A stretch of 64,000 nt of DNA from Cloacimonetes bacterium UBA6097 (lineage in GTDB: Bacteria; Cloacimonadota; Cloacimonadia; Cloacimonadales; Cloacimonadaceae), in the NCBI GenBank assembly GCA_002435865.1, contig DIWV01000002.1, positions 127,370 through 191,369 on the forward strand. The letters are read 5' to 3'. Within the stretch, counting starts at the first letter, position 1, and the number at the start of each line of letters is the position of its first letter. Below the pieces are notes generated by a model, which was not told the origin of the DNA, did not search any database, and saw nothing but the letters and a program-made list of their open reading frames with translations. Positions 25,028-30,852 of the stretch are shown piece after piece. The translations under genes and the position numbers were made by a program.

Positions 25028-26212
25028 TTATTCAGCAATACTTGCTACAACGCCGGAACCGATAGTACGTCCACCTTCGCGAATAGCGAAACGGAGACCC
25101 TGTTCCATAGCAATCGGAGTAATAAGTTCTGCACTGATTTGAACGTTGTCACCGGGCATAACCATTTCCACGCCTTCAGGCAGGTGCAGGGTTCCGGTCA
25201 CGTCTGTTGTACGGAAATAGAATTGAGGACGATAACCTGAGAAGAAAGGTTTGTGGCGTCCGCCTTCATCAGTGGTGAGGACATAAGTCTGACCAATAAA
25301 TTTTGTATGAGGTTTGATTGACTTAGGTTTGGCAAGCACCATTCCACGTTCCACGTCATCCTTGGCAAATCCGCGCAGTAAAACACCAATATTGTCACCG
25401 GCCTGGGCTTCATCCATCAATTTACGGAACATTTCCACGCCTGTGCAGGTGGTTTCTACAGTCTCACGAATACCTACGCGTTCAACTTTATCCTGTATTT
25501 TGATAATTCCGCGCTCTACACGACCTGTAGCAACAGTTCCACGTCCGGGAATAGAGAAAACGTCTTCAACCGGCATCAGGAAAGGCTTGTCTGTAGCACG
25601 TTCGGGCATGGGAATATAGTTATCAAGAGCGTCAATCAATTCTATCAGAGCTGCTTCGCCTTCAGGTTCGCCGTTCAATGCTTTGAGGGCAGAACCACGA
25701 ATCACGGGGCAGGAATCTCCGGGAAAATCATACTTATCAAGAAGTTCTCTGACTTCCATTTCCACAAGGTCAAGAAGTTCAGGGTCATCAACTAAGTCAC
25801 ACTTGTTCATAAACACAACCATAGAAGGCACACCAACCTGGTGGGCAAGCAGGATGTGTTCGCGGGTCTGAGGCATTGGGCCGTCAGCAGCGGATACAAC
25901 AAGTATTGCACCGTCCATCTGGGCAGCACCGGTAATCATGTTTTTGATATAGTCGGCATGACCGGGACAGTCAACGTGTGCAAAGTGTCTGTTTTCTGAC
26001 TGGTATTCAACGTGTGCGGTTGCAATCGTGATACCACGGGCTTTTTCTTCGGGAGCGTTGTCAATACTGTCGAATGAGCGGAAAGTAGCTCCACCTTTTT
26101 TGCTCAGATACAAAGTAATCGCAGCAGTTAAAGTGGTCTTGCCATGGTCAATATGACCAATAGTACCAACGTTAACATGGGGCTTATTACGCACGAATTT
26201 CTCTTTCGCCAT
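25028..26212 (-). CDS. tuf: Elongation factor Tu
   Basis: 394 aa. [33 protein letters not shown]..., canonical EF-Tu throughout. Confidence 0.98.
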
Positions 26213-26357: not shown

Positions 26358-26433
26358 TGGAGCTCACAATCGGACTTGAACCGATGACCTCCTCCTTACC
26401 AAGGAGGTGCTCTACCGGCTGAGCTATGTGAGC
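26358..26433 (-). tRNA. tRNA-Thr (anticodon GGU)
   Basis: The reverse complement is GCTCACATAGCTCAGCCGGTAGAGCACCTCCTTGGTAAGGAGG...GGTTCAAGTCCGATTGTGAGCTCCA. The cloverleaf was drawn by hand, with anticodon loop TTGGTAA. Confidence 0.9.
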
Positions 26434-26457
26434 TGCTGTTTTCATGTAATATAAAAA

Positions 26458-26533
26458 TGGAGCGGGAAACGGGGCTCGAACCCGCTACCCTCAGCTTGGA
26501 AGGCTAATGCTCTACCAAATGAGCTATTCCCGC
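26458..26533 (-). tRNA. tRNA-Gly (anticodon UCC)
   Basis: The reverse complement is GCGGGAATAGCTCATTTGGTAGAGCATTAGCCTTCCAAGCTGA...GGTTCGAGCCCCGTTTCCCGCTCCA, with anticodon loop CTTCCAA. Confidence 0.9.
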
Positions 26534-26548
26534 ATGAAATAAAATTTA

Positions 26549-26634
26549 TGGTGGAGAGGGGGGGATTCGAACCTCCGAAGTCGTCTGACGACAGATTTAC
26601 AGTCTGTTCCCTTTGGCCGCTCGGGAACCTCTCC
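26549..26634 (-). tRNA. tRNA-Tyr (anticodon GUA), long variable arm
   Basis: The reverse complement is GGAGAGGTTCCCGAGCGGCCAAAGGGAACAGACTGTAAATCTGT CGTCAGACGACTTC GGAGGTTCGAATCCCCCCTCTCCACCA. It is an 86-nt class II tRNA. Confidence 0.9.
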
Positions 26635-26640
26635 ACACTA

Positions 26641-26715
26641 TGGAGCCGATGAAGGGAGTCGAACCCCCAACCTATTGATTACAAATCAATTGCTCTACCA
26701 TTGAGCTACATCGGC
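26641..26715 (-). tRNA. tRNA-Thr (anticodon UGU)
   Basis: The reverse complement is GCCGATGTAGCTCAATGGTAGAGCAATTGATTTGTAATCAAT...GGTTCGACTCCCTTCATCGGCTCCA. It is the first gene of the Thr-Tyr-Gly-Thr-tuf cluster, the same order as E. coli thrU-tyrU-glyT-thrT-tufB. Confidence 0.9.
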
Positions 26716-27110
26716 AACACGTTTTGTCACAATCCTTAGCACCTCGGTCTATTGTCAACCGAAAACTACACTCTATTATCGTTTAAATATCATTTTTCCA
26801 GTGTAAATGCCAAAAAAAACTACTCAAGATATATGTCAAATGTTTTTCTTTAATTGTGATTATTTGTTGAAAATCAGCGGTCTTTCCCTACCTTGTGTCA
26901 TATTAGAAAAGGAAGAACACTCATTATTCCACAGAGATACTCCATGTATCCTGTTATTTTATGTTTTCTGAATTATGCTCTGTTCGTTTCTTTCCACATT
27001 ACAAGATATATACAGAGATTAACTAAACAGAGGCCTTCCCAACAAATTTCGATTGCATTGATAAAATCATGATGAAAATTCCAAAAATATATATTAAAAC
27101 CATATACCAG

Positions 27111-28364
27111 TTATATTGCTTTAACATTTTCTATTGTTGTATCGAGATCTTCTATATGTCCTTGCAAAGTAAATCTTGTTCTGATACTCTCAAGAAATTC
27201 AACTGCTTTATTTTTGGGATAAGCATTAAATAATTCACTTCGGACTCTTTCGTTATCTCTTATCATAGTTAATAATAACCGTAACTTGTCAGTATTTAAG
27301 GAGCTTATGAAATCTGCAAGGATATTATGACTTTCGGATCTCCCCCAATAATTTCCAAAGAATGTCGATAAAATCTCTTGATAAACTTCTTCAAAAACAA
27401 CAGATGGAACTGAAGGTCCCAATTGGGACAATACCCTAGCTGCACTATTTTCCGAAGCCCAGCCATAAGATGCATCCTTTGCATTGGCAAGTTTACTAGC
27501 TGCTTTTCTATATATATTGGCTCTTGAGCCATCAGGAATATATTTAATCGCATTTAGAGAAACAAGCATTTCTAACAACCTAGTTTTTGCGCCCTTATCA
27601 ATACTATTATCTGCTGTTTCATCAACCGCAAAAGAATGGTATTTTAAACCAGCTGTTTTTCTTAGGTCTTCAATTGACAATTCCCATACAACAGGAAAAA
27701 GAACTTTTGAATTACTTAAACTTGGCTCAGTACCATTGCATAATAATTCTAATAAAAATCCAAATAGTTTTCTTAAATCAGGGCTTTTTAAACTCTTTAT
27801 TTGGTCAATATGGATCAAGATTTGTTCTTGAGCTAATGCAACATTTTTAATAGGATCAAATAAAGAAAATACTGAATGTCCAGGTTCTGGTATGCTCGCT
27901 TCAAATAAGTTCTTTTGAAGTAAAAGTGCTATAGCTATAGAATCTTCAACATCTACTTTAACATCTGATTCATGTGCAGCTGAAACATGATTTCTCATCC
28001 AGTTTATCATTTCCAATGCTTTACTAGCTTTAGGGTTTAATAATCCAAGATTTTTTGCTCCTTGAATAAGCATTAAATCATCTACATTTTCCCATCTTTC
28101 TGCGATTGTACTACCATCTTTATCATATTTTTTTCTTCCATTTTCTGTTTTAACAACAAACTCCCATAATTCTACACCAAAAGCTTCTACGCGTCTTTTC
28201 AAATTATGCATTGCGGCATTCCACAAAGCTAAAATTGAATAACTATAAAATCCAGATTCGAATAACCGAGTAGCTTCATTTACGTAGCCGAATTCAATTG
28301 CATCAAAGTTTGTCATTTGCTTACATGCCGATGAGACTAGTATTTCAGGAAGATATATACTCAT
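27111..28364 (-). CDS. Hypothetical protein with N-terminal HEPN/Abi-like helical domain (RN-x5-H motif)
   Basis: 417-aa AT-rich ORF, all-helical in appearance. Residues 121-131 read NWMRNHVSAAH, i.e. R124-N-x5-H131, which fits the HEPN Rx4-6H consensus with the Abi-type RN. The remaining 270 aa are unrecognised. Confidence 0.7.
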   Translation of the reverse strand: MSIYLPEILVSSACKQMTNFDAIEFGYVNEATRLFESGFYSYSILALWNAAMHNLKRRVEAFGVELWEFVVKTENGRKKYDKDGSTIAERWENVDDLMLIQGAKNLGLLNPKASKALEMINWMRNHVSAAHESDVKVDVEDSIAIALLLQKNLFEASIPEPGHSVFSLFDPIKNVALAQEQILIHIDQIKSLKSPDLRKLFGFLLELLCNGTEPSLSNSKVLFPVVWELSIEDLRKTAGLKYHSFAVDETADNSIDKGAKTRLLEMLVSLNAIKYIPDGSRANIYRKAASKLANAKDASYGWASENSAARVLSQLGPSVPSVVFEEVYQEILSTFFGNYWGRSESHNILADFISSLNTDKLRLLLTMIRDNERVRSELFNAYPKNKAVEFLESIRTRFTLQGHIEDLDTTIENVKAI

Positions 28365-28440
28365 TTTTTCTCCAATGAATCACTTTGTTTGAGGAAATAA
28401 TTTTGTTCTAAGTCAATTGTAAACATCATATAGAAAATTC

Positions 28441-29460
28441 TCAAAATCCTTTAGGCACTAAATCCAATTTGTTAATAGATATATTGATATATTCAAGGTT
28501 TTCCCAAACTCGTAAGACTTCAATGTAATCCCAATACTTAAGCTTGTCTTTTAATCCCTGAACACCACTTGCGTGCTTTCTAATCTTTTCTATTTGTTTT
28601 GCATCTGATACTGCAACAATTCCTTGAACCGCATTATTATTTAAGGATTTGAGTAAATTCATGCAAAGACTATCTATGCTACCTTTGGTTTGAACTTCAA
28701 AAACATAGATAACCCTTCCCATGTTTCCAATTGTCTGTTCCCAAATGGTGTCAACTTTTGAACCATCAGCAACCCTCTTTTCAATATCTGCTGTAAACCC
28801 AAGCCAATTGCCAATGTCTTTGATTTTATCTCTTACTTCATTGTGGAGTTTTTTATCAGATATATTTTTAATATTAATTTCTTTACCTGATACTTCAAAT
28901 TCATTTTTTCTACTTGGTTCTTTAATTTTCTTTCTTTCTTTTACTTTTTTGGTTTTTTCTCTAACAATCTTAGCTTTTTCGATGAGTTTTGGGTCAAATT
29001 CATATACTTTCTTAGCTATATTCTGTTCAAACAGAACTCTTTCCAGATACTTACCATCTGCATCACTTAATTTATTTAGGCTTCCCCTAACCATCATCGT
29101 CCATTTCTGGCTTGTTTTTGGCAGATTTTTTGTAAAGGAAAGATTCTTCCAGATAATATCTTCTTTTATTGGTAGACTGTTTTTAAAATTAAGCCAAACA
29201 AGTTCTTTGACTTTAAACCTTATGCAAAAAGGATCTTCTTTGGTCATAAATATTGGAGTTGAATCTTCAAAATAGTTCGATTTAACTTCTAAAATCCCAA
29301 ACCATCTTGAGAGTCTTGTAACATAACATATTAATTTATCACCAGGCTTCATCTTCGCAGCAATGTTCTCTTGTCTTTTTCTAAAGCCAGAAATAAATTT
29401 ATCTGAATCCTTGAATGCCTGATATGTTTCAGGAGAGAATAAATCAATATAATAAGCCAT
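28441..29460 (-). CDS. EVE/PUA-like domain fused to restriction-endonuclease-like (PD-(D/E)xK-type) domain; putative modification-dependent nuclease
   Basis: 339 aa. Residues 1-145 read YYIDLF...KPGDKLICYVTRLSRWFGILEVKSNYFEDSTP...FCIRFKVKELVWL...GSLNKLSDADG, which resembles the EVE fold pattern. Residues 160-200 form a Lys-rich linker. Residues 205-300 read HNEVRDKIKDIGNWLGF...VDTIW...VIYVFEVQTKG...GIVAV, giving candidate catalytic residues D237 and E255/Q257-x-K259. Confidence 0.7.
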   Translation of the reverse strand: MAYYIDLFSPETYQAFKDSDKFISGFRKRQENIAAKMKPGDKLICYVTRLSRWFGILEVKSNYFEDSTPIFMTKEDPFCIRFKVKELVWLNFKNSLPIKEDIIWKNLSFTKNLPKTSQKWTMMVRGSLNKLSDADGKYLERVLFEQNIAKKVYEFDPKLIEKAKIVREKTKKVKERKKIKEPSRKNEFEVSGKEINIKNISDKKLHNEVRDKIKDIGNWLGFTADIEKRVADGSKVDTIWEQTIGNMGRVIYVFEVQTKGSIDSLCMNLLKSLNNNAVQGIVAVSDAKQIEKIRKHASGVQGLKDKLKYWDYIEVLRVWENLEYINISINKLDLVPKGF

Positions 29461-29815
29461 CTTTGATTCCTTATTGTTTTTTTTAAAAGGAAATAGAAAG
29501 TCATATTTGTCAAGAAATATTCATCAAGATTATACTTTAAGCTCAAGCATATGTTCTACTTCCATATTTCTTTCAATCGGATTTCTAGTACTTAGCTATC
29601 TTTGCACATCAGTCAAATCATAATAGAATTACGGAGTAAGTCCGTAATGGTAGCGTATTGCTCTTAATTAAAAATGGTACAACCCCTGGCATAGATTTTT
29701 AAAGTAATGTACTGCTTCAATTAATTTGCGGATAAAGCATATGTTTTCAATTCCTGCTATATCCAATAACCATGCTTATTCCCATGTTTCTTTCTTCTTT
29801 ATATCTTAATTACAA

Positions 29816-29870
29816 CCCGGGTAGTTCCCGGGTAGTTCCCGGGTGATTCGCGGGTGAAACCCGGGAAGTA
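29816..29870. repeat. Tandem 11-nt repeat x5
   Basis: CCCGGGTAGTT CCCGGGTAGTT CCCGGGTGATT CGCGGGTGAAA CCCGGGAAGTA, read directly from the sequence. Confidence 0.85.
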
Positions 29871-30000
29871 CCTGATATAATCCCGGTATAATCTTGGGAT
29901 GAATTAAAGAGTGAAAAGATACGACAAATGGACTGCGTTCATTTGAATTAAAAATTTAGATTAAGAATTAAAAGAGATATTTAATCACAGAAAACAGCGT

Positions 30001-30202
30001 GGATCCCTGTCCCGTTCTTCAACGGGAGGGACCCTCGAACCGCAGGAATGACGGGAAAGGAAATGGATCCCCGCCTTCGCGAGGATGACGTAAGGGATGG
30101 CAAGCTCCTGTTTGCCATTTGCCAAGCTGGAGCTTGGCAACCCTAAAAAACTGGATGATGCTTTCGCATGAGAGAAGTTTCTGCCTTCGCTGGTATGACA
30201 TC
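30001..30202. repeat. Cluster of family-B short repeats (GGATCC...GC..GGAATGAC/GAGGATGACG type)
   Basis: The units are GGATCCCTGTCCCGTTCTTCAACGGGAGGGACCCTCGAACCGCAGGAATGACGG, GGATCCCCGCCTTCGCGAGGATGACG, the CCAAGCTGGAGCTTGG hairpin and TTTCTGCCTTCGCTGGTATGACATC. They generate the spurious ORF 30019-30204. Confidence 0.7.
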
Positions 30203-30285
30203 AAAGAATCCCGTAGGGATGCTATATGGTAGCCCAGGATTTTGAATCCTGGGTATGGATGAATAATATTTTTTTTTTGTAACTC

Positions 30286-30331
30286 CCCCCATCTCAGTCA
30301 TGCGACAAAGGTCGCATGACTGAGATGGGGG
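30286..30331. repeat. Perfect 21-bp-stem hairpin flanked by T-runs on both strands
   Basis: CCCCCATCTCAGTCATGCGAC AAAG GTCGCATGACTGAGATGGGGG. It is preceded by T10 and followed by AAGTGCTTTTTTTG. Confidence 0.85.
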
Positions 30332-30469
30332 AAGTGCTTTTTTTGTATTTTGTGTTCATATCTTTCCCAGGGTTCGAAACCCTGGGCTAATAAATGTCAC
30401 CCTTACGGGTTGTTTGGCACATAGCTGCTTTGCACCCTTGCGACTTTGCGTTTAAAAATAACTTAGTTA

Positions 30470-30675
30470 TGCCATTTGCAAAAAGGCGCTACTCTCTTTT
30501 CCCTCTGAGTCTCTGTGGTGAAAGGAAATATGGAACTGGATCCCCGCCTTCACGAGGATGACGAATAGGGAATAACTTTGCGGCTTTGCATCTTTGTGCC
30601 TTTGCGTTTTGGATTTATGCCTTTTGGAAAAAGGTGCTACTCTCTTTCTCCTCTGAGTCTCTGTGGTGAAAAAAC
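30470..30675. repeat. Two about 56-nt direct repeats (family C, ...CTCTGAGTCTCTGTGGTGAAA)
   Basis: 30470-30525 reads TGCCATTTGCAAAAAGGCGCTACTCTCTTTTCCCTCTGAGTCTCTGTGGTGAAAGG. 30618-30675 reads TGCCTTTTGGAAAAAGGTGCTACTCTCTTTCTCCTCTGAGTCTCTGTGGTGAAAAAAC. A third partial copy lies at 35765-35790. Confidence 0.8.
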
Positions 30676-30852
30676 GGACAGGCACAAGACCTGTCCCTAC
30701 AAGCATAAAAAAACATAGATCCCCGATCGGGTCGAGGATGACGGACGCAGGTAATCTATAGCATAAATAAGTTGACAAATATCATGGCAATCGGTAACGT
30801 TATATTAGCGTGGTTCAGCGCATTAAATCAATTAAAACCTGGGGAGGAAAAG

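Follow-up and report, generated by a model that had tools for sequence, protein, structure and literature searches.

An AT-rich islet beside the tRNA-tuf operon of Cloacimonetes bacterium UBA6097 holds two candidate defence genes that do not form a conserved pair

Cloacimonetes bacterium UBA6097 carries, within a 64,000-nucleotide (nt) stretch of contig DIWV01000002.1 (the window, to which all positions refer), a short AT-rich islet next to a tRNA-tuf operon, and in it two co-directional genes, A and B, that an initial annotation had proposed to be an undescribed two-gene defence system. Comparison with other genomes shows that the families of A and B do not co-occur, and that the two genes are not a conserved two-gene system. 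The islet is probably a small horizontally acquired segment in which two independent single-gene defence candidates lie side by side, rather than a two-component system. Gene A most likely encodes a type IV (modification-dependent) restriction endonuclease, and gene B most likely a stand-alone abortive-infection effector. The locus has the following features.

about 26716..29990, no strand: AT-rich islet, GC 0.32, delimited by composition, with the 5′ end of the tRNA-tuf operon on one side and a GC-richer repeat field on the other
28441..29460, minus strand: gene A, 339 amino acids (aa); EVE reader and PD-(D/E)xK-like nuclease; predicted type IV restriction endonuclease
28365..28440, minus strand: intergenic gap separating A and B; GGAG ribosome-binding site ahead of B
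28416..28444, minus strand: promoter-like site (TTGAGA-17-TACAAT, 10/12 matches), weak evidence
27111..28364, minus strand: gene B, 417 aa; HEPN-like N-domain and alpha-solenoid; member of an unannotated superfamily
26358..26715, minus strand: tRNA Thr-Tyr-Gly-Thr cluster, the downstream boundary of the islet and outside it

Genes A and B are not found together elsewhere

Searches with tblastn found neither whole A nor its N- or C-terminal half in any of 25 loci carrying a B homologue, and found B in none of 83 loci of the family to which the nuclease domain of A belongs. The same result was obtained with hidden Markov models (HMMs) of the B superfamily, the EVE half of A, the nuclease domain and NmeDI_C, compared with all stop-to-stop open reading frames (ORFs) of the loci (1.2 Mb): there were no cross-hits in 34 B-type or in 89 A-type loci, and all positive controls matched. 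B also lacks a conserved neighbour of any kind among the 25 genome loci, which come from very different phyla, beyond those shared by near-duplicate genomes. The proposal of an undescribed A–B defence pair is not sustained by these comparisons, and a false lead towards a new two-gene system is thereby removed.

A true two-component system particular to this lineage – for example one in which A senses or cuts modified phage DNA while B, transcribed together with it, acts as a back-up RNase that imposes dormancy – is improbable in our estimation. The co-directional genes are separated by only 76 nt with no terminator-like site seen between them, they share an unusually low GC, and the arrangement recurs identically in three assemblies, although it is restricted to contigs encoding these exact proteins. 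However, the families never co-occur at the profile level, and each is routinely found alone or with other partners. The promoter-like site in the gap before B also argues for independence, as weak evidence, since promoter-like sites were fewer in real than in shuffled sequence. Weighing on the other side, a partnership confined to this lineage would lie beyond the reach of the comparison, because the exact A chimera (described below) is a singleton.

Composition and boundaries of the islet

The ORF list gives A at 28441–29460 and B at 27111–28364, both on the minus strand and 76 nt apart, in the positions and sizes of the initial annotation, which had also described the flanks and the foreign composition correctly. 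ARAGORN and Rfam place genes for tRNA-Thr(tgt), Tyr, Gly and Thr(ggt) at 26358–26715 on the minus strand, followed by tuf (25028–26212, minus strand); B lies upstream of this operon, its end 395 nt away. On the other side, the 1.3-kb stretch upstream of A (29461–30771) is without a long ORF and holds repeats, such that A and B are the sole long ORFs in 26716–30771, where there is no methyltransferase gene.

The composition of the islet is foreign. GC is 0.31–0.33 at 27–30 kb, as compared with approximately 0.40 for the window (1-kb windows), and when the 37 non-overlapping ORFs that reach 150 aa are ranked, A and B take the two lowest places both for GC and for GC at third codon positions (GC3). 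The values are 0.315 and 0.260 for A and 0.330 and 0.199 for B, with means of 0.406 ± 0.026 (GC) and 0.368 ± 0.041 (GC3) for the remaining 35. Two observations count against acquisition by transfer: the ORF list has no integrase around the islet, and a repeat search around it for flanking att-like direct repeats returned only AT-rich matches at chance level. A tRNA-linked integrative element was considered separately and rejected, there being no integrase and the islet flanking the tRNA cluster on its 5′ rather than its 3′ side.

Gene A: an EVE reader joined to a nuclease-like domain

The domains of A were delimited as follows.

29026..29460, minus strand: residues 1–145, EVE (PUA-like) domain, from Pfam, NCBIfam and PDB matches
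28876..29025, minus strand: residues 146–195, lysine-rich linker and domain-swap junction, from the homology limits of both halves
28444..28875, minus strand: residues 196–339, restriction-endonuclease-like (PD-(D/E)xK-type) domain, from AlphaFold2 and Foldseek
28690..28782, minus strand: candidate catalytic segment E227...D237...E255-V-Q257, from residue conservation, with a presumed catalytic role

The EVE/PUA-like N-domain that had been called by eye is borne out. It matches Pfam EVE (PF01878) at E = 5.8e-6 and 26.8 bits, above the gathering threshold (GA) of 23, and the UPF0310 proteins PH1033 and MJECL36 in the PDB (1wmm/2p5d; phmmer E = 4–5e-4, PH1033 at 4e-4). Residues 1–139 also match NCBIfam PRK00809 at E = 2.9e-12, yet under the cut-off of that model. 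Judged from sequence, A thus has a PUA-superfamily modified-base reader of the EVE type. The precomputed Pfam annotation lists PF01878 alone, without NmeDI_C.

The C-domain gave nothing meaningful in sequence and profile searches of the PDB. In the AlphaFold2 model, residues 190–339 (pLDDT 75) have the order alpha-beta-beta-beta-alpha-beta-alpha-beta-alpha, and the Foldseek PDB list for the domain is headed mostly by PD-(D/E)xK nucleases; the R2 retrotransposon endonuclease is best (E = 1.1e-3), and other matches are SfsA, FokI, BamHI (probability 0.98, TM 0.43, rmsd 3.6), EcoT38I, PaqCI, Cdn1, SPARDA and VRR-NUC. Residues E227, D237, W240, E255 and K271 do not vary in an alignment that extends to archaeal plasmid homologues with 30–48% identity. 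The restriction-endonuclease-like domain of the initial annotation therefore stands as to topology and the kind of protein most often matched, but not as to statistical significance, with zero structural matches at E ≤ 1e-3 (Foldseek, PDB). This speaks against a nuclease, as do two further observations: the canonical (D/E)xK lysine position (257) is Q or H in the alignment, and hhalign of the C-domain with NmeDI_C alignments is not significant (P = 0.13), even though the two align over their full length. There were no matches to A among GenBank phages (tblastn), and no member of the A family in IMG/VR. PADLOC-DB v2 has no match at E ≤ 1 to A or to B, in agreement with the initial view that this is not a named system.

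The two halves of A have different parents. Residues 1–175 are 60% identical to proteins of approximately 372 aa with an EVE domain and Pfam PF27126 (NmeDI_C), while residues 186/193–339 are 67–74% identical to the C-domain of a large family of approximately 360-aa proteins, the N-domain of which matches the OGG-like family PF21790 at a weak-to-threshold level. In A, the similarity to the EVE family stops at about residue 175, that to the nuclease family begins at about 186–194, and the domain combination is unique in a collection of 5.8 billion protein clusters. By these homology limits A is a one-off chimera of an EVE half and a nuclease half. It would have arisen when an EVE+NmeDI_C-type enzyme and the nuclease family with the OGG-like reader exchanged domains.

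A chimera found only once, in an islet without mobility genes, might also be a non-functional recombination product, and the cassette decaying cargo in which one or both genes are inert. We regard this as very improbable, in that neither ORF is interrupted or shorter than is usual for its family, A and B both keep every invariant residue, and B is 59–61% identical to its nearest full-length relatives.

The genomic contexts of the parent families connect A to restriction. A metagenome scan for the nuclease-domain family yielded 80 loci, all of the OGG-like type, and Pfam matches among the clustered neighbours identify hsdM (N6_Mtase), hsdS (Methylase_S) and hsdR (ResIII, EcoEI_R_C). Non-redundant loci with 4 kb or more of upstream sequence number 26, and in 16 of them the OGG-like+nuclease gene follows co-directional type I restriction-modification genes (hsdM/hsdS/hsdR), and it looks like an unrecognised accessory gene of such operons. 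Another member lies in an island with pAgo (Piwi), a type IIG (Eco57I-type) enzyme and a KAP NTPase. As for the EVE+NmeDI_C genes, one adjoins a ResIII/Eco57I protein and two others are in ordinary contexts. The nuclease module, with either an EVE or an OGG-like reader, is thus tied to type I restriction-modification operons and suggests an unrecognised accessory layer that targets modified DNA.

Three observations on these loci are recorded here. The approximately 360-aa OGG-like+nuclease family (loci L032–L111, e.g. L062 8001–8417, L092 and L108) is unannotated, and its C-domain is about 70% identical across phyla. A protein of approximately 500 aa without a Pfam match (cluster c10) is encoded between hsdS and the OGG-like+nuclease gene in L056, L068 and L094. 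In L026/L027 (6595–9083) a KAP-family NTPase gene ends 12 nt before the OGG-like+nuclease gene; in that lineage they may make up one unit.

Could A instead be a reader of modified RNA, such as tRNA, or a DNA-repair protein, with a C-domain that is non-catalytic or a repair nuclease? Modified RNA is another ligand of EVE domains, which are also known from housekeeping contexts (PMC7641849), a tRNA operon is adjacent, the sister family has an OGG-like glycosylase-type N-domain, and the (D/E)xK lysine is replaced. We nevertheless give this explanation little credence, because a compositionally foreign singleton chimera is not a conserved housekeeping gene, and because the nuclease family travels with type I restriction-modification operons and the EVE half derives from EVE+NmeDI_C proteins.

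The preferred reading of A, as a type IV restriction endonuclease, follows from the EVE match above cut-off, the nuclease-like model, the invariant acidic residues, the linkage to type I restriction-modification and the EVE+NmeDI_C parentage. In the mechanism that we propose, the EVE domain would flip a modified base out of incoming DNA and recognise it, and cleavage of that DNA would fall to the PD-(D/E)xK-like domain, probably through E227, D237 and E255. No methyltransferase would be required, and none is present.

A is best read as a new domain-shuffled member among known EVE–nuclease putative type IV enzymes. Earlier catalogues list EVE-PD(D/E)XK fusions as putative type IV enzymes (PMC7641849; PMC6765204), and EVE-HNH enzymes (VcaM4I) have been characterised (PMC6765204, PMC7897488). 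Like these, A is a single polypeptide with an N-terminal EVE reader and a C-terminal nuclease domain (predicted in the case of A), has no partner methyltransferase, and is a foreign, fast-moving gene. It differs in that its predicted nuclease is neither HNH nor, by the tests described here, NmeDI_C, but belongs to an unnamed family without a Pfam model, in having Q or H in place of the (D/E)xK lysine, and in a domain combination seen only in this organism; A is, moreover, a predicted enzyme. R.NmeDI is a characterised restriction enzyme (PMC2095814), and besides the 60% identity of the EVE half of A to proteins with an NmeDI_C C-domain, the C-domain of A and NmeDI_C align end to end with a common ‘FEV(E/Q)’ strand and ‘SI.S’ helix. 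NmeDI is, however, an ordinary type II enzyme with a methyltransferase, unlike A, and both the Pfam annotation and hhalign (above) keep the C-domain of A apart from NmeDI_C.

Gene B: a widespread family of probable HEPN proteins

Gene B is divided into the following parts.

27870..28313, minus strand: residues 18–165, all-helical N-domain (HEPN-like), from AlphaFold2, with W48, R124 and H131 invariant
27972..27995, minus strand: motif R124-N-H-V-S-A-A-H131 (Rx6H), from the translation, with superfamily consensus MRNxxSAAHPN
27114..27869, minus strand: residues 166–417, alpha-helical solenoid (ARM/HEAT-like), from the model; proposed sensor or scaffold

There are no matches to B in Pfam, PADLOC, NCBIfam or the PDB, and B has an end-to-end match to phrog_27609 (E = 4e-93), a family of unknown function. 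A first search found 403 homologues, nearly all of 416–420 aa and 50–61% identical (the closest full-length relatives being at 59–61%), in Bacteroidota, Chlorobium, Burkholderia, Pseudomonas, Acidobacteriota, candidate-phyla-radiation (CPR) bacteria and others. With a profile search, the superfamily grew to 423 clusters at E ≤ 1e-3 among 1.84 billion representatives, 196 of them at E ≤ 1e-10. Represented among these is a sister branch of approximately 472 aa, with plasmid members, that by itself comprises at least 723 clusters at 90% identity, none with a Pfam annotation or a name. The B superfamily is thus widespread, strongly conserved and missing from Pfam, NCBIfam and PADLOC.

The AlphaFold2 model of B (pLDDT 85) is entirely helical, with N-domain helices at residues 22–36, 40–62, 96–105, 111–126 and 139–154, and pLDDT values mostly of 85–95 over the solenoid. 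Within the close family the block EMINWMRNHxxxAHxxD does not vary. In a set of 30 diverse N-domains (mean column identity 36%, identity to B as low as 16%), W48, R124 and H131 are the sole invariant residues, with N125, S128 and A130 near-invariant, and about 65 of 79 superfamily members carry the consensus MRNxxSAAHPN. HEPN nucleases are defined by an Rx4-6H motif (PMC13043305), and the B motif, an Rx6H with asparagine after the arginine, falls within that definition. The only Pfam families matched by more than one of the 79 members, all sub-threshold, are Abi_C (three members, best E 0.1), DUF4145 (two members, best E 0.007) and Nif11 (two members, best E 0.088), of which Abi_C and DUF4145 are HEPN families and Nif11 is unrelated. 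The RN-x5-H motif that the initial annotation had picked out is therefore real, with both R and H invariant, but membership of the HEPN superfamily is no more than probable on the motif and these weak profile matches, there being no significant profile match. With this proviso, and that on the C-domain of A, the first domain calls were largely right.

A motif-less relative shows the solenoid in another combination. P0382 (692 aa) has a caspase-like Peptidase_C14 domain at residues 7–225 (E = 6e-15) in place of the HEPN-like domain, and a B-type solenoid at residues 431–615, an arrangement suggesting that effectors can be swapped on a common sensor module.

The genomic contexts of B are varied. 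Among the 123 closest neighbours are four integrases, along with restriction-modification genes of types I and IIG, Schlafen/AlbA_2 and AAA_14 proteins, and plainly housekeeping genes. PADLOC models for restriction-modification, a BREX/DISARM-type methyltransferase and SIR2 were matched in this set, with at most two proteins reported per model and no enrichment figure. The B homologue of Burkholderia cepacia adjoins an H-NS gene and a pair made up of a UvrD-like helicase and DUF2290; that of Pseudomonas moorei has an AAA_15 and HNH pair with MvaT on one side and a GAAD/GASH/DO-GTPase (GTPase conflict-system) cluster on the other; and in Empedobacter the neighbours are uninformative.

B homologues are also present in lambdoid prophages; tblastn found no matches to B among GenBank phages. 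Three IMG/VR contigs carry one. By PHROG scans, its neighbours in one contig are O-like replication genes on one side and the Q antiterminator on the other, and in another contig it comes after RecE/RecT-like genes and an Ant anti-repressor. The first of these contigs is 100% identical to E. coli sequence, and the homologue there, WP_000042049.1 (‘hypothetical protein’), is encoded by 13 of the 5426 complete E. coli genomes. Its gene belongs to a Qin-like prophage, with the replication region on one side and hokD-rem-ydfU-ydfT on the other. The accession was not found in the literature or in the parts of the DefensePredictor supplements that were covered, so that its absence there is not proven; a 418-aa E. 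coli ‘HEPN domain-containing protein’ does appear in these supplements. In E. coli 2012EL-2448 (NZ_CP027586.1, 4955633–4956886; L127 9001–10254) the homologue stands immediately before hokD, and the prophage also holds a 373-aa hypothetical protein and an integrase fragment.

Several of these results weigh against B as a HEPN defence effector. There is no significant HEPN profile or structure match; the full-length Foldseek search (PDB, BFVD) returned only generic solenoid/TPR and ARM/HEAT/MO25-type matches at E ≥ 0.03, being dominated by residues 166–417 and hence uninformative on the N-domain fold, for which sequence and profile searches of the PDB gave nothing meaningful; the R...H motif is missing in about 14 of the 79 aligned members (about a sixth); and the neighbourhoods are mixed, some of them plainly housekeeping. 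B might accordingly be neither a nuclease nor a defence gene, but a helical scaffold or regulator on mobile elements, active in anti-defence or in plasmid or prophage maintenance and using R...H for binding. Besides the points just given, including the uninformative neighbourhoods, distant relatives on plasmids adjoin toxin-antitoxin and bacteriocin genes, not classic defence genes. We think this unlikely: W48, R124 and H131 alone are invariant in a diverse set, with a spacing and a following polar residue that are HEPN-typical; two HEPN families recur among the weak Pfam matches; the prophage accessory slot and the defence-island contexts suit defence; and the B-type solenoid is also found behind a caspase-like effector.

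The reading of B as a defence effector follows from the wide spread of homologues, the invariant R124 and H131, the recurrent sub-threshold HEPN matches, and the defence-island and prophage-slot contexts. B would be a latent HEPN-type RNase with an active site of R124 and H131 that forms upon dimerisation, and the C-terminal solenoid would keep it inactive until a phage-derived trigger binds. We infer, for B as for A, the enzymatic activity and the defence phenotype, and for B the trigger. The superfamily most likely consists of solo HEPN-like effectors with a solenoid sensor, a new variety of such proteins if confirmed. More tentatively, we suggest that it is a large and as yet unnamed family whose members each act as a single-protein abortive-infection system. 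The family numbers at least 423 clusters at 50% identity, crosses bacterial phyla and reaches into E. coli prophages; on this view an ARM/HEAT-like solenoid would sense a phage protein and control a HEPN-type RNase, and the same solenoid would be reused with a caspase-like protease.

Among characterised proteins, HepS of prophage Gifsy-1 is an experimentally proven solo HEPN abortive-infection protein without conserved partners (PMC13043305). HepS, like B, is a single gene that lacks a conserved partner, carries an Rx4-6H-type motif and occupies an accessory slot of lambdoid prophages (PMC13043305), and by analogy the two may share a logic in which a latent RNase is freed by a phage protein. 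They differ in that HepS homologues are shorter than 250 aa, with an Rx4H motif and no solenoid, whereas the HEPN fold and activity of B are predicted; no sequence similarity between them was detected. The HEPN families matched by superfamily members, Abi_C (the AbiJ C-terminus, PF14355) and DUF4145 (PF13643), are linked to B by sub-threshold matches in five of the 79 members (best E 0.007–0.1), and B itself has none.

Repeats and RNA motifs of the gene-free field

The gene-free region upstream of A contains two inverted copies of the Acido-Lenti-1 RNA motif (RF01687), at 30207–30253 (minus strand) and 30366–30411 (plus strand), of which one scores 44.4 bits, above the gathering score of 37, and the other 31.1 bits. 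Between them, at 30282–30335, is a 25-nt near-perfect hairpin. Short repeats are dispersed through the 1.3-kb field, in pairs at 30059–30090/30532–30563, 30467–30523/30615–30671 and 30419–30453/30575–30609; one is a GGATCCCCGCCTTCGCGAGGATGACG-type element, and another is 57 nt long with 91% identity. A short tandem CCCGGGTAGTTCC-like run is located at approximately 29817–29870.

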